Assembly: GCA_028522875.1 (NCBI GenBank)
Contig: GCA_028522875.1_3659.1
Length of the DNA stretch: 64,000 nucleotides
Strand: one strand, 5' to 3'
Source: a phage
Made by a program: the position numbers and the translations under genes. Positions 34,829 to 64,000 of this stretch are shown piece after piece. Every line of letters starts with the position of its first letter. The stretch's first letter is position 1. The notes below the pieces were generated by a model, which was not told where the DNA came from, did not search any database, and was given only the letters and a program-made list of their open reading frames with translations.

Positions 34829-36310
34829 TTACTTAGCGTACTCGATTAATTCCACAGTTTTCCCAAAGCTCGGGATATAATTTTTATTATACCCTTCGGT
34901 TAGAACCCATAAAGTATCGTACTTTTTCCACTTGTTGTCAACAGCCTTTTGTTCAAAGTTATGCTCAAAGTATAGGTCGGTCAGGACGATGACATCTTTT
35001 GCATTCGGTATGTTGGCATCCAGATACTCGAACACGCAAGCAGCTGTTGTGCCCCATGTTGAGTGGACCTCATAGTTAATCATCTCGTCTATGTTGCCGC
35101 GAGTGTATACTTTAACCTCTCCAACCTCAGTTGACCAACAGAACATTGTAACCTTAAACTCTTTATACAGATTGCACAATCCGGTGATTTCATTGAACAT
35201 TTTCTTTAAAGTTCTTTGAGAGATCGAGCCAGAAACGTCTAAAGCCACCACAATATCTATAGTGTTTTCCGGATTACGACCAGGAACAATAACGTGCTGG
35301 TTCTTGTTTATAGCCCCAACTTTTCGCATTGTGCTGGTCAAAGACCCAGATCGGCGACCAGGTTTTCTGTAGGTCAGTTCAGCCTTTCGTTTAGACAACA
35401 TGCGTTGCTTAATGATGTCTATATAGTTGATTACAGGCTTACCTCTGTTCTTGACAAACTCACGCACCGCCTCGGGGCAACGGCCTCCGGACGCTTGCAT
35501 TGCTGCCTCCAGCATATCACCAGAGTCCTGCATGGCCTGATCTTTATCAGATTGGCTGATTACAGGTTGTGGCTGATCATACCCCATAGCTTTTCCAAGA
35601 TCATCACTGGTGCCACCGTTCCCACTCATGTGATCATCTGTTTGTCGCTTATCACCTTGAGAGTTCTCACCTTTACCGTTCTTACTTTTACCGTTATTCT
35701 GATCTCTTTGCTTATCAAGAACTGCATAAACGTTCTCAGCAATCCATCCATGAAACTTCATATCGCAGTAGCAGCTGGCTAAGAAGCCAAAAGGCTTACC
35801 TTTCACGAACGTAGTGCTTTTCCCCTTCGGGAAGAAAACACAAGGAGGCTTGCTAAAGTCCACCACAAGTCCTGTGTTGATAACGTGATCACAAGCAATA
35901 TTGAACAGTTCCGGCTCAAAGCTTTTACCACGGACCAGGTGATCACAGATAATATGCCCCACCTCATGCGACAGAAGAAAGGCCACCTCTTTCACAGATT
36001 TGGGGGAATAGAAAACCTCAGCCATCTCAAACTGCTCGTCAGTTAGAGAAGCCTTAAGAATAGCCTTACGTTCATCAGCCAACCCCATAATGAACTCAGG
36101 ACTGTAATAGATGCGTTTATGGTCGGTTGCCATGGTGGAGCACCATGTATGGTTTTCTACGAACTGCAATCCTGACAGCAGTGTGCCATAAAACGGCAGC
36201 TTTTCAAGGAGATACATACGTGCAGCCTGCAACATTCTCAGGGCATCATCTTTTTGTGAGGCAATGATTTCTGAACTTCTGATATCCATTAAAACTCCAG
36301 AAGGGGCCAT
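34829..36310 (-). CDS. vWA domain protein with N-terminal HExxH metallopeptidase-like motif (DUF2201-like, MoxR partner type)
   Basis: 493 aa; HEVGHIICDH (HExxH); C-terminal vWA MIDAS motif DIVVALDVSGSIS (DxSxS); acidic/Gln-rich linker; start codon sits in a GC hairpin. Confidence 0.55.
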   Translation of the reverse strand: MAPSGVLMDIRSSEIIASQKDDALRMLQAARMYLLEKLPFYGTLLSGLQFVENHTWCSTMATDHKRIYYSPEFIMGLADERKAILKASLTDEQFEMAEVFYSPKSVKEVAFLLSHEVGHIICDHLVRGKSFEPELFNIACDHVINTGLVVDFSKPPCVFFPKGKSTTFVKGKPFGFLASCYCDMKFHGWIAENVYAVLDKQRDQNNGKSKNGKGENSQGDKRQTDDHMSGNGGTSDDLGKAMGYDQPQPVISQSDKDQAMQDSGDMLEAAMQASGGRCPEAVREFVKNRGKPVINYIDIIKQRMLSKRKAELTYRKPGRRSGSLTSTMRKVGAINKNQHVIVPGRNPENTIDIVVALDVSGSISQRTLKKMFNEITGLCNLYKEFKVTMFCWSTEVGEVKVYTRGNIDEMINYEVHSTWGTTAACVFEYLDANIPNAKDVIVLTDLYFEHNFEQKAVDNKWKKYDTLWVLTEGYNKNYIPSFGKTVELIEYAK

Positions 36311-36322
36311 TGGCCCCTGTCA

Positions 36323-37366
36323 TTATTTAACGTGTTTGAAAATACCTGCCAACTCGGTCATTGTCATGCGGGTGGTCTTCATAAGATCTGTCATAGCTTT
36401 CTCCATAATTGGAGATACTACCATAAAGTTTCCTTTAGTGAAACCTTTATTCCAGTCGGTCACCAACAGTGGTTTAAGTCCAGCTCCAAGACGTTCACCA
36501 GTTAAAGCACAGCATTTGCGAATATACGAACTCTTAAATTGGCTGAACGACAGATCAACTTTCATACCTACATCGTAGAACGTTTGACAATAGAAAGTGT
36601 AAGCTTTGGCAATCTCAACATCATCAGGTAGTGCAGGAACCTCTTCTGTAAGCTCCTCTTCGACCTCCTGAGTCTCTTTTTCCTCTTCATGCACCTGTTG
36701 CGTCATTTCTTCAATCTCTTCTGTGATAGGCTCGTTTACAATGTCGGAAATGTGCTTCTTGGGTGCACGATAAGTAACTTTAGACATCGGTAGCATATCT
36801 TCCTCCTCTTCTTCGTCAAAGAGTGCTAGTTTATCCTCTTCCGTTCCATATTGCAAGATGAAATCTTCAAAAGTATAATCACCTTTCAATTTCTCCATAC
36901 GCTCTTCGCTCAGGTGGAGCATCATCTGCTGGACAATTTTTCGATCAGTTTCGTCTTTAATCAAGACTGCAGTCTTTTTATCTACCAGACAGTCCTTTAG
37001 AGAGTTGCATCTCAATCCCACCACACAACAGTTATCAACCGCATAAGGACCTTCATCATCTATCCGCTCCAGAGATGGGTAGAAAGGATTTCCCAGCCCG
37101 TTTTCATCTGTGTGCATGTCAAAAGGTATAAGGGTATAGTCGCATACTCCATCTCCTAAAAGTTTTTTACCAAATAGGAGGTATTCTTCCCATGACAGGT
37201 CGAACTCTATATCTCGTTTCCGTGCATTATTCTGTTTGCGTCTATATTTTTTGAGCAAGCGCTCTAACTCTTCTGGTGTATAATATTTTTCAAGATTCAT
37301 GAGTCGTCTCTCGTGCTCTGTAAGTGAAGAAATCGTATCAATTGTCTCAACAGATGTCAACATCAA
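36323..37366 (-). CDS. HNH endonuclease (HNH_3-like His-Me finger) fused to acidic C-terminal region
   Basis: 347 aa; motif PSLERIDDEGPYAVDNCCVVGLRCNSLK resembles HNH_3 (s.dRId...gY...N...v....N..K); Glu-rich C-terminal half; internal MSKVTYRA repeated at start of gene 38631. Confidence 0.5.
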   Translation of the reverse strand: MMLTSVETIDTISSLTEHERRLMNLEKYYTPEELERLLKKYRRKQNNARKRDIEFDLSWEEYLLFGKKLLGDGVCDYTLIPFDMHTDENGLGNPFYPSLERIDDEGPYAVDNCCVVGLRCNSLKDCLVDKKTAVLIKDETDRKIVQQMMLHLSEERMEKLKGDYTFEDFILQYGTEEDKLALFDEEEEEDMLPMSKVTYRAPKKHISDIVNEPITEEIEEMTQQVHEEEKETQEVEEELTEEVPALPDDVEIAKAYTFYCQTFYDVGMKVDLSFSQFKSSYIRKCCALTGERLGAGLKPLLVTDWNKGFTKGNFMVVSPIMEKAMTDLMKTTRMTMTELAGIFKHVK

Positions 37367-51164: not shown

Positions 51165-54100
51165 ATGAGCATGTGGTCTTTCGATTTTGAGTCATCCGGT
51201 TTGCTGGAAGACCCAGATCTTTATTATCACTGCGGCCTGTTTAAAGAGCTGAATAAGAACCGTTTTATGCTGTTCCTTCCTCTAAATGACCGCACACACT
51301 ACTCTGAAGAGGATATAGAGAAGGCTAAGAACTTTATTCTGGCAAAGAAAACTCTTTATAAAGATTTTGAAGTTCGCATAGCAGATTTTTCAGAGTTGGA
51401 AGGTTGGCTTACAGGAAATTCTGACTGGTCACCCACAGCTTTGAACTGCCACAACTGCTACAGCTACGACTTTATGCTGATGGAGAGATTGTCCGGTATT
51501 CATTTTGATATGTTCCGTGACCCTAAGTGTATGGGGACTATCAACGACCACCAGGTTAATCTGTTTGATACGTTGGCGATGAGCCGAATCTTGTGGCCTG
51601 ATCGCCCTTTACCAAAAGGTTGTCCGGACTCTGTATTCAACCCGGTTACTAAGAAAATGCAGCCTGTTGGTCCTCACGGCCTTATGGCATGGGGCTACGC
51701 CCTTGGTAACCAGAAAGTTCAAATTGATGACTGGCGCGATCTTCCGTTGTGGAAGTATGTGGATCGTGTATTCGAGGACGTTATCATCCAGGAGCTGCTC
51801 TGGAAAGAGCTGGTAGCGGAATCAAAAGGTGTATTCTACGGCAAATCTGACATGCAGAACTTTATGTACGATCCAGCCAAAGAGAAGCCGAAAGGGTTCA
51901 AGAAGATCACCTGGAAGAACGCACTACGTCGAGGCATGCTGCAGCACTTCCTGATGGAGCTGCAGGCCCGTCAGGGTGTATACTTCGACATAGATGGAGC
52001 TATTGCTTTACGTGACCGTTGCGATGCGTGGATGAAAGAAATCGCTGATCGTGTTGAACCACAACTACCTTTAAAAGAGCTGTCAATGTCTCAGCGGCCC
52101 AAGTTCCCTGAAAAGCCGTTTAACCAAGACGGGACAATCTCTAATAATGGTTGGAAATGGTTAAAAGATAAGCTTGGCTATCCTGTAGACATGAGCGCTT
52201 TAGATTTCAAAGCCCCGCCTAAGCGAGCATTTACCTCTACAGGAGATGTCAGCAAGATGGGGATAAAATGGTGTGAAGAGATGGGCTGCAAAGACCCCGA
52301 TAAGATGGCTGATTTCTTGAGAGGCTATATTAAGGGCACTTCCACACCTCACCCTTTGCCTAAAGAGCTGATGGATCAGGCAATAAGTGATCTACAGCAG
52401 AAGCGAATGCCGGACTGCAAGATACCTATGAAAATCAGCAATCAGGACGACATTAAGCGGTATCTGATCAGTGCTGGCTGGCTACCGACAATGTGGAGAA
52501 CTAAGGATGTAACTAAAGATAGCAAGAAGAAAGCTCTACCTGATGCGGATGTTGATGCACGAGTATATGCATATATGGACGAGCTTTTAGAGTCAGAGTA
52601 TTGTGACCTGATTATCAACTTCTGGAACAAAACTGATGCCAAGTTCCAGACAACTGTGCACAAGTTCCGAAGCTTTCCTAACTCTGAAAGGATTAAAAAG
52701 GAAGTATTCGGGAAAATACGTAGAAAAGCCAGAGCACTTATTACTTCTCCGCAACTGAAAGATACGTTTGGACACCTGTGTCCGAATCTTGAAAAATTGA
52801 ACGGAGAGATGGCTAAAGATATCGTCTTGTGGTTATCATTGCGAAACCGCAGATCAGTCCTTGATCCAATCAAGGAGGATAAGGTTGATACTGGTCTTCT
52901 TAATCACCCACGTTTGAAGATTGACCATAAGCTTCCTGCTAAAAGCTCTGGATTAACAAACACTTCCAGACAGAAACACAGTATTTGTGCAAACATGCCT
53001 AAACCATCCCCTAAAGTGGTTATGGGTAAAGAGATGCGCAGTCTGTGGGGTGTTCCTCCTGGATACTTTCAGATCGGTATTGACGGGTCCAACTTAGAGC
53101 AGCTTATCGGGGCTTGGGGTGCCTTTGAGTTCGACAACGGCCTGTATTACGATGTTGTAAGTAACGGCGATGCACATTGTTATTCAGGAGATACACAAAT
53201 TCTCACGGAGAAAGGGTGGGTGAGGTTTGAAGATCTTGATCCGGGAACACAAGTGTTCCAGTACGATCACAACACCTCGTCAATGAACCTTGTTACTCCA
53301 TTAAATTACGTTAAGCGTAGTTATTATGGAGATATGTATCATTTCCACAACAGTAGTGTGGATTTTATGGTTACAGATCAACACAGGATGCTGACTGTGG
53401 ATCACAGAAGCAATAAATTGTTTGAAGATTTGGCAAAAGACCTGAAAGCAGGTAAAGGGTCTAATTCAGGAAGAAGGTTTATCCATGCGGCAGAGTTTTA
53501 TGGGAATACAGCCTTATCTCCTGCCCAGGTTAATTTGCTTATTGCTATTCACGATGATGGGCACTTGCATACAAATAAGGACGGCAGCATCGTGTGCAGG
53601 ATTCAGGTCGGAAAGGGAAGAAAAGTTGCAACGCTTTTAGATACTTTTTCTGCTCTAAGCCTTAGTTATGTAGAGCAGAGCGGGAAAACCACAAAAGGAG
53701 GCTTACTGGCGAGAAGGTTCCAATTCCACGTTCCGTCTTGGGTATTTGAGTTTTTGGACAGCAATAAGGATTTCACCTACAACCTGATGAACCTTGATAA
53801 AGAATCTAAAAACCTGTTTATAGCTTCTTTATCTAACTGGGACGGGTGGGTATCTTCAGAAGGTGGAAAGGTTGCTTACTACTCCCAGGCCGAGTGTAGG
53901 AAGAAATCTGTAGAGGTGGTGTCTGCGCTGGCTACTCAGTGTGGTTTACGGAATAATACGGTGGCGATTCACAAAAAAGGTCGTGCCGTGCAGCACAGAA
54001 TCACAATTGGTAGCAAACAGAGAGCAGGGTTGCTGACACTATCTAAAGAGTCTGTCGAGGTGAGCGGTTCTTTGGTTTATTGCGTTACCGTCCCTTCTGG

Positions 54101-54557
54101 AGCAATCATTGTGAGAAGGAATGGTAAAGTGGCAGTGTGCGGTAACTGTAATAACGCCAAAGCTTACTCTTCTGTAGCAGGCAAGGAGATTTCCCGTAAC
54201 GATGGTAAGCCTATCACGTATGGGGTTATGTACGGGGCACAAAAAGATAAAGTTGCAGATATGCTGGACATCTCTCCAGAGTTGGGACAAAGGGTAATCG
54301 ATGCACTCTGGGATGCCAACCCTGGTCTCAAGGGGCGCAAAGAGGATCTGGAGAAATTCTGGGAAGCAACTGGTAAGAAGTTTATCTACTCTTTTGATGG
54401 TCATGCTATCTGGACCAGATCTAAACACTCTTTACTTAATGCATACCAACAGAATGGTGGTGCATCGCTGTGTGACTTAGTTGGGATACTTATGCACCAC
54501 CAAATGGTGAAGCGTGGGTGGTACGATGAAGGTGTTCGTCGTATTATTTATTACCAT
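51165..54557 (+). CDS. DNA polymerase, family A (T7-like), exon 1; contains an in-frame intein
   Basis: 3'-5' exo motif FDFESSG; motif A IGIDGSNLEQLIGAW; motif B KPITYGVMYG; ORF stops right after ...IIYYH-K at motif C position. Confidence 0.8.
53178..54146 (+). mobile_element. intein (Hint domain with degenerate LAGLIDADG-like endonuclease region) in DNA polymerase
   Basis: 323-codon insert between pol motifs A and B: starts CYSGDTQILTEKGWVRFEDL (block A), TxxH block B at VTDQHRMLT, ends ...RRNGKVAVCGN with +1 Cys; flanks align with T7 pol NGDIHTKNQIA. Confidence 0.6.
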
Positions 54558-54833
54558 AAATAACATTGTGGCTTCATAGAGTAATCTATGTCGAATAACC
54601 TCTTTAACTGCGGGAAGCCTAAACCTTATGGCAAGGTAATCCGCAACGAAGCGCTCAAAAGAGCGAACGCTCAGAGGCCATTCCGAAAGGAAGTAGACCA
54701 GCAAGTGCGGTCGAAATGGGAGGATTCCTGTGGTTGCTTATCATAGGAATATGAGATGGTCCGATCCTACGTGAAAACGTATGGCTATGCACGTAATGGT
54801 GCGGGGTAGCTTAACGACCTACCTGAACTATTG
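54558..54833 (+). ncRNA. group I self-splicing intron (no ORF) interrupting DNA polymerase motif C
   Basis: 5' exon ends in U (54557), intron ends in G (54833); P1 exon CCAU with intron GUGG (54567-54570); core elements P CUGCGGGAAG (54607-54616), Q AAUCCGCAAC (54637-54646), R GUAGACCAGC (54692-54701), S GAGAUGGUCCG (54752-54762); splicing restores YYH-DEYQ. Confidence 0.75.
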
Positions 54834-57374: not shown

Positions 57375-57666
57375 AAACATCACCCCAGCAGGGTTCTTAA
57401 AAGTATACCGTGAACTGCTGTATACTACAGAGGACAGTGTTCTAGAGTATCCAGAATATCTCTTGCTGTATAAGTATCTGCAGGAGGCTGGTGAAAATCT
57501 GCCAGTTAGTGCAGAAGGCGGTCCGAACTGGGTATACAGCGCATGGAGAAAGGTTGACATTCTCCCAGACCCAGGCAAAGATATGGTAGTTTGGCAGCTT
57601 ATCAACAACATCGGGATTCCAATCTTTGATGAAGCTGTTAAAATCTATTTTGAACTTGACGATTAA
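57364..57666 (+). CDS. hypothetical protein
   Basis: ATG 57364 preceded by gggag (track start 57346 less likely). Confidence 0.4.
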   Translation: MKTENITPAGFLKVYRELLYTTEDSVLEYPEYLLLYKYLQEAGENLPVSAEGGPNWVYSAWRKVDILPDPGKDMVVWQLINNIGIPIFDEAVKIYFELDD

Positions 57667-57683
57667 TATCAGGAGACCTTAAG

Positions 57684-57929
57684 ATGACTGAAGTAGTTGC
57701 TCGCGCAGGACAGAAAGTACGTTGTGTTGAAGTAGGTTTTGGTGGCAAAGGGTGTCAAAACTTGACTCAAGGTAAGGAATACGCTGTTATCTCTGGTGGT
57801 GGCGACGAAAGTATTGTGTTCGAGGGCCACATCCTGGATGCTGAAAACTTTGAAATCTTTGACGACGATGGGGATCCGATCACCTGCCTGCTGGACGGGA
57901 ATTGGGGAACTTTCGAAGTGATTGGCTAA
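57684..57929 (+). CDS. small protein, distant member of tandem paralog family
   Basis: 81 aa; RBS caggag; GKEYAV ... FDDDGDPITCLL resembles KDD.GD...CT core. Confidence 0.4.
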   Translation: MTEVVARAGQKVRCVEVGFGGKGCQNLTQGKEYAVISGGGDESIVFEGHILDAENFEIFDDDGDPITCLLDGNWGTFEVIG

Positions 57930-57939
57930 CAAATACCTA

Positions 57940-57968
57940 TTGTAATTTACAGAAGGGGATGCTAAAAT
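57940..57968 (+). promoter_or_regulatory. sigma70-like promoter TTGTAA-17-TAAAAT with extended -10 TG
   Basis: -35 TTGTAA 57940-57945; spacer ends ...TGC; -10 TAAAAT 57963-57968; upstream of 58013. Confidence 0.45.
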
Positions 57969-58012
57969 AGTGTCTCCTTCTATGTTGTTCAAATAAAATC
58001 GGAGATTCCATA

Positions 58013-58378
58013 ATGGAACAAATGAACGATCAAGCGTCGGTTGCGATGAACGAGCAAGAACAACCTCAAGAATTTTTCTTAGGGTTAAGTAAAGATCAAG
58101 TGTCTCTTTTGCTAGTGCTTTCTTCTTTCATGGGAAGACTTCAGGAGCTCACACAACAACCGGAGGCTGAACAATTATTTCAGGCCCTGCGCGAAGAAGA
58201 AAAATATCGTCGTTTGGACTATGCCTTAGGTTGGGTAGCTCAACAACGAGATATGTTGATGGCCCTCTCTGGGACCACAAGTTTTGCAATGGGCCTGTTG
58301 GCTCAAGTTCAGGACAAATTAATTCAAGCAGGGTTTGCACACACGGCAAACACTAACGAAGAACAAGGAGACAAATAA
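58013..58378 (+). CDS. hypothetical protein
   Basis: 121 aa; RBS ggag. Confidence 0.45.
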   Translation: MEQMNDQASVAMNEQEQPQEFFLGLSKDQVSLLLVLSSFMGRLQELTQQPEAEQLFQALREEEKYRRLDYALGWVAQQRDMLMALSGTTSFAMGLLAQVQDKLIQAGFAHTANTNEEQGDK

Positions 58379-59604
58379 TGAGCGTTATTCAACAATTCGC
58401 TAACCCGATGAATCCGCGTGAAACTGTTTTACTGGCTCACGGTATGATCAAGCGTGTTAGCATCAAACCTATTAAAGGGGCTGATCCTGCAACAGGTATT
58501 AAAACCACCGTGTGGCAAGGTAAGAAAATTGAATCCAGCCACACCATCTCTTTACTGATTTCTGAACTGGATTCCTCTGATAACCTGCTTCAAGGTGGCG
58601 AAGAAGTCTGGATCAGCATGGGTGATAAGCTGCTTAAACCGGGTCATCAAGACTCTGTCTCTGTTAAGATTGATGACAAGTGGGAAACCGTAACACCAGG
58701 ATGGATCGTAAATATCCCTTTGAAGGCAAACGAGCATAACGGTAAGACCTATTACAAAGGCTCACTGGCTAAGATGGTCAAGCTGGGTGCAGGAGAGGCT
58801 CCAGCAGCGACTCAGCAGCAAAAACAGCAACAAGGTGCACAATCACAAGGTCAGAAGCAGAAACCTCAGCAGAATGCCAATCAGGACGTTTTACGCATCT
58901 ATGGCGATGTGACTCAGATTGTTGGCAACGTGGTTACTGTTAATGACCACAAGATCGGCGAAGGTGCTATGGTTGTCACGGATGAGCAGCTTAAAGACCT
59001 GGTGGTAGGTGGTCGTGTTGCAGCCATTGTTGACAAAGCCACCGGAAACATTATCAGTGGTTTCAAAGCCTATCCACCTAAGGCAGAGAACGGCACCCAA
59101 GGTTCTGGTGGCAAGCGTAAATCCTCTTACGACCCTATCGGTGTGGAGACGGGGCATAGCATCAATGCGTTGCAGATCATCCTGGATCGCGGGTTTAAGG
59201 TAGACGACCCACTAGGCGTGGCTAAAACACTGCACGTAGTCACCATTGAGCTTAAGAAAGAGTATGCTCAAGCCACCAACCGAACTGAAGATGAAGTAGG
59301 TGCCAGTGTCGGTAATGCGGTGTTGAACGCTTGTCGCCGTATTAACAAGAAAACGAAAGTTGATGATTTTGCAGCGGCAATTACTGCAGAAGCAAAAGAT
59401 GTCTTGACTAATCTGGCTGAGCCGTTGTACGATTGGATCAAGAACGGTTCTGGGTCCACTGACCATCAAGAACCCCAAGCTGCCAAACAGGAAGCAGCTC
59501 CACAGCAAAACACTGTAGACGCTCCTCCTGTAAATGATGAGGAAGATGACCCAATGGATCAGAATCCAGCACAGTACTCCTTTGATGATGACATCCCTTT
59601 TTAA
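58378..59604 (+). CDS. SSB-like protein with Gln-rich linker and bacterial-SSB-type acidic C-terminal tip (DDDIPF)
   Basis: 408 aa; RBS aaggag; linker ATQQQKQQQGAQSQGQKQKPQQ; C-terminus ...DEEDDPMDQNPAQYSFDDDIPF ends like E. coli SSB (DDDIPF); in replication gene neighbourhood. Confidence 0.5.
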   Translation: MSVIQQFANPMNPRETVLLAHGMIKRVSIKPIKGADPATGIKTTVWQGKKIESSHTISLLISELDSSDNLLQGGEEVWISMGDKLLKPGHQDSVSVKIDDKWETVTPGWIVNIPLKANEHNGKTYYKGSLAKMVKLGAGEAPAATQQQKQQQGAQSQGQKQKPQQNANQDVLRIYGDVTQIVGNVVTVNDHKIGEGAMVVTDEQLKDLVVGGRVAAIVDKATGNIISGFKAYPPKAENGTQGSGGKRKSSYDPIGVETGHSINALQIILDRGFKVDDPLGVAKTLHVVTIELKKEYAQATNRTEDEVGASVGNAVLNACRRINKKTKVDDFAAAITAEAKDVLTNLAEPLYDWIKNGSGSTDHQEPQAAKQEAAPQQNTVDAPPVNDEEDDPMDQNPAQYSFDDDIPF

Positions 59605-59619
59605 CAATTAGTTAACATA

Positions 59620-59647
59620 GCCCTGCCCGAAAGGGTGGGGCATTTTT
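59620..59647 (+). terminator. rho-independent terminator (copy 2 of repeated element)
   Basis: gccctgcccgaaagggtggggc hairpin followed by attttt; identical to 48229-48250. Confidence 0.55.
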
Positions 59648-59665
59648 GTATAAGGAGATCTGAAA

Positions 59666-60082
59666 ATGACATTAGAAGATATCATTGTTAAACCTGAGAA
59701 CTATGACCAATACAACCTGTCAACTCAATCTGTAGACCTTGGATGCGCCACGGTCAGTGCGTGGCTGGTTAACGGAAAAGAGCTAGATAAATGCTTAGAA
59801 GCTCACATGTCTATTAACAAGTTTCTGGATGAAAATACTCACTGGCTTGAGGGTGCAGGAGTATATGCTTCATGGTTGGAGAGTATGGGATTCGACTACC
59901 AATCTGAAGAAGGGTGGTGGAGCTATTTAGCTATCTGCCCAGAGACGCTGCAATGCTTCATGAAATATTCTGAAGATTTGGAGTACCGGGCGGTGGTTGA
60001 TAGTGCTATTGCCCGTTATAGCCGTAAACCTTTTTCCCACGACATTAAAACTGTGGAAGAGTTTGTTGAAGTTTTCTGTTGA
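59666..60082 (+). CDS. hypothetical protein
   Basis: 138 aa; RBS aaggag. Confidence 0.45.
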   Translation: MTLEDIIVKPENYDQYNLSTQSVDLGCATVSAWLVNGKELDKCLEAHMSINKFLDENTHWLEGAGVYASWLESMGFDYQSEEGWWSYLAICPETLQCFMKYSEDLEYRAVVDSAIARYSRKPFSHDIKTVEEFVEVFC

Positions 60083-60178
60083 CACAGGCTGAAAGGTGTG
60101 CAATTATAACTTCATAGAACGGGAGGACGTGATGAACGAAGAAAACTGGGATGTATAACTAACAGGAGGCCACTGCCC

Positions 60179-60376
60179 ATGATTTATCGAATCCGTGTAA
60201 GAGAAGATGCACCAGGCTGTTACTTTGACTGGCGTGGGTGGTGGTTTCTACACCCAATGGATGGACTCACAGATAGAATGCTGGATGCTGCCCTTTATAC
60301 AGATACCGACATAGAATATAATCTCTATCTGAAGGACGGTATAGATAACGGCCTGTTTGAAGCAATTCCTGTGTAA
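60179..60376 (+). CDS. hypothetical small protein
   Basis: 65 aa; RBS ggagg. Confidence 0.4.
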   Translation: MIYRIRVREDAPGCYFDWRGWWFLHPMDGLTDRMLDAALYTDTDIEYNLYLKDGIDNGLFEAIPV

Positions 60377-60444
60377 GAGACTGTGATAGCTATGTTTTAT
60401 GATCTTCCTGTAGCACCACCACCTGTTGAACCCGGAGAACTAAG

Positions 60445-60870
60445 ATGATCTATGAAATGCCAAAACTGATTCGTGACGATGCCCAAAACGCCCACACCTT
60501 TATCATGGGCAAGCGCATGGATATTATTTGTCATAAAGATTTCTGGGAAGGGAGTTACTTCACGGAATATTTTGGTAAACTGGATAATGGTCTGCTGATC
60601 CAGTTCTACACCGATGCGGAAAACAATATCTGCTGGGAGTTCGAAACTGAAGATATCCATAAACTTTTCACCTTCCTAGGTATTAAGGTTGAGGCCAAGT
60701 TCGAAGAAGGTGAGTGCGACGATTGTGGATTCTACGAGGTAACAGATTTCTATCTCCCAAGTGGTGAGAACCTTTACTATGAAAGCCACTTCGGCAACTC
60801 AAATATGCCACAAGGTTGGGATGAGTTTTTTGAAATTGTGGAAGAGGAGCTGGCATACCGTGATTATTGA
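60445..60870 (+). CDS. hypothetical protein
   Basis: 141 aa; RBS ggagaac. Confidence 0.45.
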   Translation: MIYEMPKLIRDDAQNAHTFIMGKRMDIICHKDFWEGSYFTEYFGKLDNGLLIQFYTDAENNICWEFETEDIHKLFTFLGIKVEAKFEEGECDDCGFYEVTDFYLPSGENLYYESHFGNSNMPQGWDEFFEIVEEELAYRDY

Positions 60871-61318
60871 TACTGTAGAGGGAGATTTAATCTCCCTTTT
60901 TAAGAGCGGCGCTGGTCACCTGATCCACGGTTGTAACTGCTTCCACACAATGGGCAAGGGGATAGCAAAACAGATTGCCCGTGAGTTCCCTCAAGCATTG
61001 GCAGCTGACAAAGAGACCAGACATGGTTGCCTAAGTAAACTGGGTGCGTTCTCCCGATGGGAGCACTTATCTCCGAGAGGTATTGTCTACGGAATCAATC
61101 TGTATACTCAGTTCTACCCAGGACCTAATGCTGAATATTTCTCAATCCTGAAAGGCTTTGAGCTAGTCAATGAGGTATTCAGTGGATCGACTTTACCATT
61201 CTACATCCCTAAGATCGGGTGCGGCATAGGCGGTTTGAAGTGGGAGCACGTAGAGGACGTTATTAACCTTGCCACTTTTGATATGGATATTATCGTGGTG
61301 GAGTACAAAAAGTGTTGA
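60860..61318 (+). CDS. macro-domain-like protein (ADP-ribose binding/processing), tentative
   Basis: GTG 60860 after gaagaggag; motif HLIHGCNCFHTMGKGIAKQIAREFP resembles macro domain glycine-rich loop (hG.N....MG.GiA ... P). Confidence 0.45.
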   Translation: MIIDTVEGDLISLFKSGAGHLIHGCNCFHTMGKGIAKQIAREFPQALAADKETRHGCLSKLGAFSRWEHLSPRGIVYGINLYTQFYPGPNAEYFSILKGFELVNEVFSGSTLPFYIPKIGCGIGGLKWEHVEDVINLATFDMDIIVVEYKKC

Positions 61319-61361
61319 CAGCTGGTTTTTGAGACGGTATAGTCACCACAACGATTGAGAG

Positions 61362-61541
61362 AGGGAGCACTATGGAGACTAAAATCTTAATTCTGGCTGT
61401 GATAGATACAACCGAAGGGGCTGTGTTCGAATCTGCAGGAGGGTATTTCTACCTACCTTACGGAAAAAGAACTGCTGAACCAGGTAAAGATTCAATCATC
61501 AAAGTGTTCCCGTGTGCTTTCTGGCTGGAGATTTTGGTATA
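61362..61541 (+). CDS. small hypothetical protein (59 aa)
   Basis: ATG 61362 with RBS gagagggag; below track cutoff; found manually. Confidence 0.3.
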
Positions 61542-61568
61542 AGATTGCAGAGGATTTGGGAGAGAATT

Positions 61569-61763
61569 ATGAGAAACAAGAGAGAGCTTTACTCTGGCGA
61601 GTGGATCAACGATCAACAAGTCGGAGAGGTAACCTGCTTCCGGTGTTTTACTCGGTACAATCTTAAAACTGCACCAAAAAGTGTTCCAAAGACTGATGGT
61701 TATTACATAAAAGAACCTCATTGCCCAAAATGTAAATGCCGATTGTGCTGGAGCAATCTATAA
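61569..61763 (+). CDS. small Cys-rich zinc-ribbon protein
   Basis: ATG 61569 after gggagag; CFRCF ... CPKCKCRLC. Confidence 0.4.
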   Translation: MRNKRELYSGEWINDQQVGEVTCFRCFTRYNLKTAPKSVPKTDGYYIKEPHCPKCKCRLCWSNL

Positions 61764-61826
61764 GAGGTTGACATCTGAAAACTGCAGTGTATAGTATACG
61801 CATAAACTAAAAGAGAGCGATGTATT

Positions 61827-62018
61827 ATGGTAATTTTTAACCGGGATGGTATCATAGTTAGACAGCACCCGTTCCTTGAATACTATCAAATTGAGCAATG
61901 GTGCTACGGAGATTGCAGTCACTCCTATGGGCAAAGTTGGGGATATCGCACAGTTTTTGAATCAACAGACCTTGACAAAGTAAGACAGAAAGTTTTAGAA
62001 CTTATTAACAACAAGTGA
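61827..62018 (+). CDS. hypothetical small protein
   Basis: 63 aa; RBS agagag. Confidence 0.4.
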   Translation: MVIFNRDGIIVRQHPFLEYYQIEQWCYGDCSHSYGQSWGYRTVFESTDLDKVRQKVLELINNK

Positions 62019-62027
62019 GTATGATAT

Positions 62028-62360
62028 ATGGTAACATTAGAAAGACGTAAAGCTATCGCCGCCACACTGGCAGACATCTTTTGGGATTGCAACTTAAAAG
62101 ATACCAGAAATTGTGGCGCATCTGTAGATGTATTATTCCCACGGCCCACCATTGTTGCAATGGGAAACCTGTTAAACGTAGTGTACGGAGCATGGGACAA
62201 AGAAGGTGGATTCTATATCTGGCAACCTGACTACGGAGCCTGGAAAGAGGTAAGGGGTACGGTTGACTTTGGGCCTACAAGTGCTAAGATGGATGGCTGG
62301 GAAATTTATGTTGGAAACGACATGAAGCTGAAAGGCGAGATTGTTTACTGGTTGCCTTAA
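62028..62360 (+). CDS. hypothetical protein
   Basis: 110 aa; consecutive with neighbours on + strand. Confidence 0.4.
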   Translation: MVTLERRKAIAATLADIFWDCNLKDTRNCGASVDVLFPRPTIVAMGNLLNVVYGAWDKEGGFYIWQPDYGAWKEVRGTVDFGPTSAKMDGWEIYVGNDMKLKGEIVYWLP

Positions 62361-62419
62361 GAACGTGCAGGAGATAAAGTATAAACAAAGGGTGGACATT
62401 CGTAGACGGCGTTAAAAAC

Positions 62420-62626
62420 ATGCCTCTTGGAAAGTATATTGTAGCCATGGCAGATGAGAATGGCAAGGTGGATTTCGGAGTTTGCGAGGTTGTTCTTGCA
62501 GGATCTGGCGACTATGTGCACAAAACTGGGATAATTAACGGTCATTTCTACTTTGATTACAACCCTGTTGTGGCGTATATGGCTATGCCAGAGTTTAAGT
62601 TCCCAAAGGATGGTGCTGATGTTTAA
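62420..62626 (+). CDS. hypothetical small protein
   Basis: 68 aa; stop overlaps next start (ATGTTTAA). Confidence 0.4.
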   Translation: MPLGKYIVAMADENGKVDFGVCEVVLAGSGDYVHKTGIINGHFYFDYNPVVAYMAMPEFKFPKDGADV

Positions 62627-62816
62627 GCTTAAATCCGCATGGAACATTGCTGTAGGTGACGAGATCCGTATTCCAGGTGGAGAAACTATTATGAAGATAT
62701 CTCGTATCGAGTATGAAGGTGACCGTGTATTCCACATCTTTGCAGAAGATGGTCGAGAAATTTATATACAGGCAGGCTCTCACATCTATATTTGTAAGAA
62801 AGGGGACGACAAATGA
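62619..62816 (+). CDS. hypothetical small protein
   Basis: ATG 62619 (MFKLKSAW) after aaggatgg; track start 62553 less likely. Confidence 0.4.
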   Translation: MFKLKSAWNIAVGDEIRIPGGETIMKISRIEYEGDRVFHIFAEDGREIYIQAGSHIYICKKGDDK

Positions 62817-63145
62817 CAGAGATCATCGTTTCAACTGCAGGGTATGTATTCCTGACAATCATTGCGCTGGCTATTCTGGTGGCGGTGTATGGATTTGTTA
62901 TCCTGCCTATTCTTGAGACATTTAGTTTGTGTCGGTGTTGGAGAAAAGCTTACGGACCACAACCGTGGAAAGACTGGTTCCATTTGGTGCGTATAGCGTT
63001 CTCTTATGCCTATGACCACTCTAGCAGTGCATGCGTAACCGGGTACCATGCCTACAACTGGAACTGGGAAGGGTTAGGGAGATGGACTGTTACAAAAACT
63101 ATACCCTTACGGTTGTACAAAGGAAAGAACACACTGGGAGCCTGA
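62813..63145 (+). CDS. small membrane protein
   Basis: 110 aa; ATGA overlap; hydrophobic N-terminal segment GYVFLTIIALAILVAVYGFVILPI. Confidence 0.45.
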   Translation: MTEIIVSTAGYVFLTIIALAILVAVYGFVILPILETFSLCRCWRKAYGPQPWKDWFHLVRIAFSYAYDHSSSACVTGYHAYNWNWEGLGRWTVTKTIPLRLYKGKNTLGA

Positions 63146-63174
63146 TATTTTAAGTTATCAGGTTGCCAGAGATC

Positions 63175-63212
63175 AGGAGGATTTCTAAAATGGATTTCCT
63201 CCTTTTGATATT
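63175..63212 (+). terminator. candidate terminator after last gene of rightward block
   Basis: aggagga ... tcctcct inverted repeat (large loop) followed by tttgatatttt. Confidence 0.3.
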
Positions 63213-63457
63213 TTACCTGCCATGATATTTTAAAATCCTTAGAAAATCAGAAAATGGATCGAAAACTAAAATGGATTTTTCAGAGTAGGCGCGACAAGCT
63301 GAATCACTCATCCTATCGTTTGCACCATATTCCAGACCACCATTACAGATTTCCCGCACATGCTTACATCTCGCTACTAGAACTTCCTCCACTCACCCTT
63401 GACCTTTTATAGCAATAATCCAACCACTATCTTGAAGTTGCGGTGCAGCTTTCCAGG

Positions 63458-63633
63458 TACTCGATCTGTTTTTCGTTTCAAATATTGAATTTTCTGAAAA
63501 TTTTTCTCGATAAATTTCTCAGTACTCGATCTGTTTTTCGTTTTCTGAATCGGATTTTCTGGAAATCGTTCCGGATCTCGACCTGAAATTTTTGGGGACG
63601 AAATCGATTTTTCGTTTTCAGAAATGGATTTTT
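63458..63633. repeat. iteron-like direct repeats in non-coding AT-rich region
   Basis: gtactcgatctgtttttcgttt at 63458-63479 and 63523-63544, related cgatttttcgttttc at 63605-63619; recurring aaatggattt units at 63190, 63254, 63271, 63622. Confidence 0.55.
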
Positions 63634-63740
63634 AAAATTTGTATATGGAAATATTTTAGGAGGTATTATTTTATATAGAATTGTCACGGTAGGTAATTAG
63701 CATGCTAACTAAATTTATGAAATGCGAAAAGTTCTCATTT

Positions 63741-63950
63741 AGAACTTTGAATGATAATCATTCTCGTTTGCAGAATAACGGGCAGGCCCGGTGATTGTCT
63801 CCCGGCCCCTGTTGCCCCGGCTTGTTATTATAGTATCACGCAGGACAAAGAAGGCAAGGATTTTTTGCATAAATTTTTAAATGATAATGATAACCGTTCT
63901 CATTTTATGCATCGCCCATCCCCGGTGGTTGTCTCCCCCGTCACCGGTGC
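63741..63950. repeat. two related ~75-nt units with GC-rich hairpin cores
   Basis: Both units carry aatgataat ... ttctc ... cccggtg(a/g)ttgtctccc ... ccgg; no ORF; located at window end. Confidence 0.45.
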
Positions 63951-64000
63951 CTGCCGTCCTTTCGATAGGTATATTGTGCCACCTGGCGGGGTCGCTGTCA

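Follow-up and report, generated by a model that had tools for sequence, protein, structure and literature searches.

The 64,000-nt stretch of phage DNA analysed here (NCBI GenBank assembly GCA_028522875.1, contig GCA_028522875.1_3659.1; hereafter the window) comes, judged by its DNA matches, from an rV5-like Vequintavirus, a phage of Escherichia coli, and carries on its plus strand, at positions 60860-61318, a gene (the macro gene) for a 152-residue protein that consists of a macro domain only. This protein (the macro protein) is a macrodomain of the TARG1/DarG/SCO6735 (ALC1-like) class, and our analysis suggests that it is probably an orphan DNA de-ADP-ribosylase directed against the toxin DarT2, the rV5-like counterpart of the phage T4 protein Tk.4, also named AdfM. 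We favour this role because the macro protein is more similar to Tk.4 than to the Adpp phosphatases of other phages, has a relative at the tk.4 locus of a Krischvirus, shares an 8-residue loop with these two proteins, and is not accompanied by the NARP1 operon in which Adpp is encoded.

The earlier note on this DNA, made from the letters alone, had called the product of 60860-61318 macro-domain-like from one glycine-rich motif. The open reading frame (ORF) and the motif lie where that note placed them, and the protein matches the Pfam Macro family (PF01661) above its gathering threshold (28.3 bits versus 22, E 1.9e-6), with profile positions 1-32 aligned to residues 22-53. The profile searches proposed in the note as a check also gave a match to PHROG 335 (E 2e-59), and the sole NCBIfam and PADLOC matches of note are to the macro part of DarG (47.5 and 49.9 bits, respectively). 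Structure prediction, the second proposed check, likewise returned a macrodomain: an AlphaFold2 model built from 67 homologues (predicted local distance difference test score 96.6, predicted template modelling score 0.91) shows the three-layer alpha/beta/alpha fold with a mixed beta-sheet, and its best Foldseek matches in the PDB are TARG1, Poa1p and DarG, mostly as ADP-ribose complexes (E 4e-10 to 2e-8, TM 0.72-0.85). The nearest structural and profile neighbours (TARG1, DarG, SCO6735, BT1257 and Poa1p) belong to the ALC1-like/TARG1-like class and not to the MacroD, PARG or viral X-domain classes. The family is very common: of about 50,700 phage records, 2722 contain a homologue, and a search through 1.8 billion representative proteins gave 1408 clusters at E<=1e-30. 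The gene has been retained throughout the genus, and the ratio of nonsynonymous to synonymous substitution rates (dN/dS) between Vequintavirus copies, 0.08-0.14, shows purifying selection. The Pfam and PHROG matches, the homologue counts and the dN/dS values argue that it is not a chance ORF.

The ligand-binding and catalytic elements of the macro protein are located as follows.

60917-60991, plus strand: loop 1, residues 20-44, HLIHGCNCFHTMGKGIAKQIAREFP, the motif flagged in the earlier note; located by the Pfam Macro profile alignment and by residue counts across the family.
61097-61111, plus strand: N80-L-Y-T-Q84, the strand end at the catalytic position; located by profile alignments to PDB chains.
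61112-61135, plus strand: the 8-residue post-Gln loop, FYPGPNAE, directly after Q84 and up to the next conserved Tyr.
61208-61243, plus strand: loop 2, P117-K-I-G-C-G-I-G-G-L-K-W128, the glycine-rich loop that binds the ADP-ribose diphosphate; aligned to DarG and SCO6735.

The flagged motif had been read as an ADP-ribose-binding loop, and it is indeed loop 1 of the macro fold. Among 238 aligned family members, the invariant or near-invariant residues are H23, G24, N26, G34 and A36 of loop 1, N80, Y82, T83 and Q84 of the catalytic-position strand, and P117, G120 and G122 of loop 2, the last three being invariant. H23 is present in 233 of the 238 members, and position 84 is Gln in 234 of the 235 that are ungapped there. 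In profile alignments to solved structures, N26 aligns with DarG N22, K33 aligns with DarG K29 and SCO6735 K34, and G120-C-G-I-G-G125 aligns with DarG G117/G119/G121 and with SCO6735 PRIGCGLAGGTW; N26, G32-K-G34-I-A36 and G120-G125 of the macro protein therefore align to the DarG ligand contacts N22, K29, G117, G119 and G121. Q84 occupies the position of the catalytic lysine of DarG (K80) and TARG1 (K84) and of Q85 in SCO6735, and BT1257 likewise has Gln at this position. The K80A mutant of DarG is dead (PMC5179494). SCO6735 efficiently removes thymidine-linked ADP-ribose from DNA with Gln85, its Q85A and Q85E mutants are inactive, and a water-mediated mechanism was proposed by its authors (PMC9411070). 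Because SCO6735 with Gln85 is active on DNA, Gln84 is no sign of inactivity, and the best explanation of these residue comparisons is that the macro protein would be stand-alone and catalytically competent.

T4 Tk.4, encoded in the tk-vs region, is the closest experimentally studied relative of the macro protein and the best-scoring studied protein in our comparison set. The two are 39% identical over residues 1-150, that is, over the full length (120 bits, E 2e-40), and share their size, their single domain and the motifs H-G-C-N-C, MG.G.A, N-L-Y-T-Q and P.IG.GIG. In a T4 transposon screen on DarTG2 cells, tk.4 was the single gene required; a clean deletion confirmed the result, the gene was named adfM, for anti-DarT factor macrodomain, and enzymatic removal of ADP-ribose by Tk.4 "seems likely" according to the authors (bioRxiv 10.1101/2025.11.20.689424). 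At the regB-vs-tk.4 position, the Krischvirus Whisky has a gene with 68% identity, whose product groups with the macro protein at 95.5% bootstrap. Tk.4 and the Whisky protein also share with the macro protein the 8-residue loop QF.PGPN.EY; the length of the post-Gln loop is bimodal in the family, and 112 of 231 database homologues have 8 residues. The earlier suggestion of a counter-defence factor thus gains support from homology to Tk.4/AdfM and to Adpp, two phage macro proteins with experimental support. Of the two activities then proposed, the reversal of ADP-ribosylation, with DNA as the target, is the better supported, and the degradation of ADP-ribose-derived signals found no specific support.

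From these likenesses we infer that the substrate would be thymidine-linked ADP-ribose on DNA and that the protein would counter DarTG2 as follows. The macro gene would be expressed with its neighbouring small genes in the replication/early block, the two upstream ORFs probably being co-transcribed with it. Infection would release the host toxin DarT2, which would ADP-ribosylate thymidines in single-stranded phage DNA and block replication. The macrodomain would then bind ADP-ribose in a cleft that loop 1 (N26...G32-K-G34-I-A36) and loop 2 (G120-C-G-I-G-G125) form together, and the ribose-thymine bond would be hydrolysed, which would release ADP-ribose, restore the base and make the DNA replicable. 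Gln84 may position the distal ribose and a water, as proposed for Q85 of SCO6735, and there would be no Lys nucleophile as in DarG/TARG1. Because it has no DarT-binding domain, the macro protein should work chiefly as an eraser rather than as a stoichiometric antitoxin.

We also considered whether the macro protein is a DarG2 antitoxin and rejected this possibility. Its score on the NCBIfam model of the DarG equivalog (NF048014) is 47.5 bits against a cut-off of 250 and covers the macro part only (profile positions 3-141 of 338), Gln84 stands where Taq DarG has its catalytic lysine (K80, following the FPT strand), and the protein has no C-terminal DarT-binding domain. The DarG2 macrodomain (PDB 5M31/5M3E/5M3I), in contrast, has Lys80, is joined to a C-terminal DarT-binding domain and is encoded adjacent to darT, and none of these applies to the macro protein. 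A macrodomain alone suffices to neutralise DarT (PMC5179494; PhiKZ AdfM, PMC13309987).

Several points weigh against a Tk.4-like role. For T4 Tk.4 the evidence, published as a preprint, is purely genetic, and the anti-DarTG2 phenotype is shown for T4 Tk.4 only. T4 belongs to another phage family, and tk.4 lies beside vs and tk, whereas the macro gene lies downstream of the DNA polymerase and SSB-like genes; the genomes are built differently, so that the macro gene and tk.4 are not syntenic. In the literature, we found no report of a Vequintavirus challenged with DarTG2. For one phage AdfM, PhiKZ gp104, the biochemistry is established: in vitro it takes the ADP-ribose placed by DarT2 off DNA, and the phage needs it to withstand DarTG2 (PMC13309987). 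It belongs, however, to a different, Lys-type lineage: it is 21% identical to the macro protein, has retained the FPTK lysine, reaches 132.9 bits on the DarG hidden Markov model (HMM), compared to 49.9 bits for the macro protein, and groups with DarG at 98% bootstrap. The FPTK motif, the DarG HMM score and the grouping with DarG indicate that the chimallivirus AdfM was acquired separately. SCO6735 (PDB 5E3B), the proven Gln-type DNA hydrolase of Streptomyces coelicolor, is about 26% identical to the macro protein, is of the same ALC1/TARG1-like class and carries Q85/H24/N27/K34 at the positions of Q84/H23/N26/K33, with PRIGCGLAGGTW as its loop 2. However, as aligned it has the long and not the short loop, since a 13-residue mobile loop with Lys89 follows its Gln, whereas the macro protein has 8 residues and no equivalent Lys; SCO6735 is also a bacterial chromosomal gene under DNA-damage control. 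The functional meaning of the loop length is likewise something that we infer. In a neighbour-joining tree, T4 Tk.4 lies nearer to the macro protein than Gary Adpp does, but only the clade of the macro protein and the Krischvirus protein is supported (95.5%), and the branching of Tk.4-type versus NARP1-linked proteins below this clade has bootstrap values <45%, so the phylogeny does not settle the choice between the Tk.4 and Adpp roles. The remaining points come from Adpp, the Poa1p-like Macro protein encoded in phage NARP1 operons, which converts ADP-ribose 1''-phosphate (ADPR-1''-P), the product of RES-domain NADases, to ADP-ribose and defeats the RES-domain system aRES (bioRxiv 10.64898/2026.01.28.702374). 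The Adpp of Vibrio phage Gary is in the same Gln-type family as the macro protein (35% identity, 69 bits, E 4e-19), and the catalytic His is kept, since H23 aligns with H24 of Gary Adpp, the residue mutated in that study (H24A primers in its Table S4; bioRxiv 10.64898/2026.01.28.702374), and with H23 of Poa1p.

We regard it as rather unlikely, although still the best-placed of the other roles, that the macro protein is an Adpp-type phosphatase that turns the ADPR-1''-P made by RES-domain NADases (aRES) into ADP-ribose like Gary Adpp. The motifs HxCNC, MG.GIA, N.Y(G/T)Q and IGCGLAGG of Adpp (Table S1 sequences) and yeast Poa1p (PDB 6LFQ) are common with the macro protein, H-x-C-N-C and MG.GIA being shared with Poa1p in particular, and Poa1p is among the top structural matches. 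The PHROG and RefSeq label of the family is "phosphatase", and aRES systems are present in E. coli. The best of the other NARP1-linked macro proteins scores 86 bits against the macro protein; T4 Tk.4, at 120 bits, is nonetheless nearer to the macro protein than any Adpp is. Adpp benefits the phage through NARP1, which goes on to rebuild NAD+ from the ADP-ribose, and Adpp genes lie inside Adps-Namat operons, whereas the macro gene is neither in nor beside one. No homologue of Adps, Namat, Nampt or Nmnat (NARP1/NARP2) was detected by tblastn at E<=1, whether in the window or in the 136.9 kb of the complete genome of the close relative JES2013, and with no NARP1/NARP2 in the phage lineage the context in which Adpp activity is useful is removed. 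The published table of NARP1-linked macro genes contains no Escherichia, Salmonella or Klebsiella phage (bioRxiv 10.64898/2026.01.28.702374). All 13 distinct NARP1-linked sequences examined have a post-Gln loop of 12-15 residues, and the PGPN-type short loop is absent from the whole of Table S1 of NARP1-linked proteins. T4, which is likewise without NARP1, shows a DarTG2 phenotype for Tk.4.

A broad-specificity eraser is less probable still. Such an enzyme would remove ADP-ribose that a host ADP-ribosyltransferase defence, or else a phage enzyme, had attached to proteins or RNA, or would deacetylate the O-acetyl-ADP-ribose made by the Sir2-like protein of the phage itself. The close structural relatives TARG1 and SCO6735 also act on protein substrates, and in several GenBank records the macro gene is labelled O-acetyl-ADP-ribose deacetylase, but these labels are automatic annotations. 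In JES2013, genes for a Sir2-like protein (ORF78) and for a nucleotide pyrophosphohydrolase (ORF79) lie near an RNA-ligase-like ORF76 (L006:15875-18633); the Sir2 gene, however, is about 50 kb away, outside the window, and has no linkage to the macro gene. T4 has Tk.4 but is not known to encode a Sir2. ORF78 and ORF79 of JES2013 are a further NAD+/ADP-ribose-related module in this phage lineage that is unlinked to the macro gene. For RNA as the target, the mRNA ADP-ribosyltransferase defence CmdTAC restricts T4 despite Tk.4 (PMC11618068). Finally, it is very improbable that the macro protein degrades or sequesters ADP-ribose-derived immune signals (Thoeris gcADPR, His-ADPR) or is a non-catalytic ADP-ribose binder, given that no macrodomain of the TARG1/DarG/SCO6735 class is known to cleave gcADPR or His-ADPR, that H23, N26 and Q84, positions with a demonstrated catalytic importance in relatives, are strictly conserved, as expected of an enzyme rather than a sponge, and that the nearest studied relatives have other, demonstrated roles.

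The macro gene, read here as encoding a probable DarT2-directed eraser, spans 459 nt (152 codons and a TGA stop) and begins with GTG at 60860. The mechanical ORF start is at 60761, inside the upstream gene, but GTG 60860 is supported as the true start by the ribosome-binding site, by the alignment with T4 Tk.4, which begins at residue 1, by the annotation of phage I29, which has the identical gene model including an 11-nt overlap with the upstream ORF, and by the conservation of the GTG in I29 and JES2013. The signals and genes around it are the following.

59620-59641: terminator-like hairpin, upstream of the promoter match at 60079-60107.
60079-60107, plus strand: sigma-70-like promoter match, TTGACA-17-AATTAT, with an extended -10 TG; from a consensus scan.
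60179-60376, plus strand: 65-aa ORF, PHROG 9903 (unknown function), between that promoter-like site and the ORF at 60445.
60445-60870, plus strand: upstream ORF of 141 aa from the ORF list, PHROG 8157 (unknown function), with no Pfam match; its last 11 nt overlap the start of the macro gene.
60842-60849, plus strand: Shine-Dalgarno-like AAGAGGAG, 10 nt 5' of the GTG start; read from the sequence.
61315-61343, plus strand: sigma-70-like promoter match, TTGACA-17-TATAGT, 11/12, starting within the macro stop codon; from a consensus scan.
61569-61763, plus strand: 64-aa ORF, two genes beyond the macro gene, that matches the phage zinc-binding domain PF23903 (E 1e-21); no other neighbour has a Pfam match.

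The 11-nt overlap suggests that the ORF at 60445 is co-transcribed and translationally coupled with the macro gene. The ORF at 60179 is probably the first gene of this transcription unit, for which 60079-60107 is a candidate promoter, and the match at 61315-61343 would open the next downstream unit. A second near-consensus sigma-70-like promoter (TTGACA, 16-nt spacer, TATAGT, 11/12) lies at 61768-61795 on the plus strand. The placement of the gene in an early region, also made in the earlier note, is plausible: the 6.5 kb from 57500 to 64000 contain 23 sigma-70-like promoter matches, compared to 12.8 +/- 3.4 expected, and this enrichment together with the same-strand block fits an early region without proving early expression.

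The 5 kb around the macro gene match 120 phage records at 90-98% identity; almost all of these are rV5-like Escherichia phages (Vequintavirus), with vB_EcoM-Pr121LW as the best DNA match (97.8%), and the macro protein is 99.3% identical to a protein of phage FFH2. The rV5-like phages Bas54-59 of the BASEL collection also have copies, of which that of Bas59 is 82% identical. In existing records the gene is called "macro domain protein", "phosphatase" or, as noted, "O-acetyl-ADP-ribose deacetylase". The window runs from tail genes to replication genes and then into a block of small same-strand ORFs. By their position in the ORF list, the replication genes are a helicase, an AAA ATPase and a DNA polymerase of 1132 aa (51165-54563), the last corresponding to the polymerase annotated in relatives. 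The macro gene lies in the small-ORF block about 6 kb downstream of the polymerase gene, after the gene of a 408-aa protein. The ten neighbouring ORFs gave no match to DarT or any toxin family in Pfam and none to Adps/Namat-type domains, and all neighbouring ORFs fall in PHROGs of unknown function.

The 408-aa protein (58378-59604, plus strand; PHROG 4477, unknown function) has a Gln-rich low-complexity middle and ends in ...YSFDDDIPF; it has no Pfam match, and a sequence search of the PDB gave no match. This ending matches the C-terminal tip of the E. coli single-stranded DNA-binding protein (SSB), which recruits SSB-interacting proteins, and the 408-aa protein, next to the replication genes, is a candidate phage SSB or SSB-tail mimic. 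Directly after the 408-aa gene, the relatives I29, JES2013, ECML-10 and others have a roughly 0.6-kb gene with the label "endonuclease VII" or "putative endonuclease" (L002:7622-8245), which is absent from the window (at about 59604-59666) and from Pr121LW. This absence accounts for the fact that matches in the DNA search come in two pieces, and it suggests that the endonuclease gene of the relatives is a mobile insertion.

Towards the end of the window, the region 63150-64000 has no long ORFs. It contains three imperfect direct repeats of about 47-62 nt with spacings of 65 and 74 nt (63447-63632), two more repeat pairs about 130 nt apart (63746/63876 and 63787/63921) and a 16-pair hairpin at 63588-63625, and it may be a regulatory or origin-like element. 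No tRNA genes were found within the 64-kb window. On the minus strand, 34829-36310 is a 493-aa ORF (492 aa scanned) with DUF2201_N putative metallopeptidase and VWA-like DUF2201 domains; the adjoining 347-aa ORF (36323-37366) has no Pfam match. From their sizes, the minus-strand ORFs at 34829-37366 had been suspected to be NARP1 (Namat/Adps), but Pfam identified a DUF2201 metallopeptidase/VWA protein in their place. By approximate size and position only, the 493-aa ORF appears to correspond to ORF12 of JES2013 (486 aa), whose RefSeq label "HNH endonuclease" looks like a mis-annotation.

The macro gene encodes a probable member of a recently described kind of counter-defence enzyme, and in this respect the result is confirmatory, as public records already annotate its macro domain. 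Two features are of modest interest, the lysine-free active site and what looks like a split of the family into short- and long-loop members, that is, into anti-DarTG2 enzymes and ADPR-1''-P phosphatases. As a tentative and on balance doubtful extension, the whole Gln-type phage family (H23/N26/Q84 invariant) may be divided by its post-Gln loop, the short-loop proteins (T4 Tk.4 and the macro protein) being lysine-independent erasers of DarT2 thymidine-ADP-ribose and the long-loop proteins (Adpp) ADPR-1''-P phosphatases serving NARP1, or else the short-loop enzyme may do both and be a dual counter to DarTG2 and RES-type NADases. Knowledge of the substrate range and of the role of the loop length would clarify how one small fold serves two anti-defence roles. 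If the macro protein does act on DarT2-modified DNA, rV5-like (Vequintavirus) phages would carry an enzymatic answer to DarTG2, which would help to explain and predict their host range, and the strategy of the orphan antitoxin-like enzyme would reach beyond the T-even and nucleus-forming phages.

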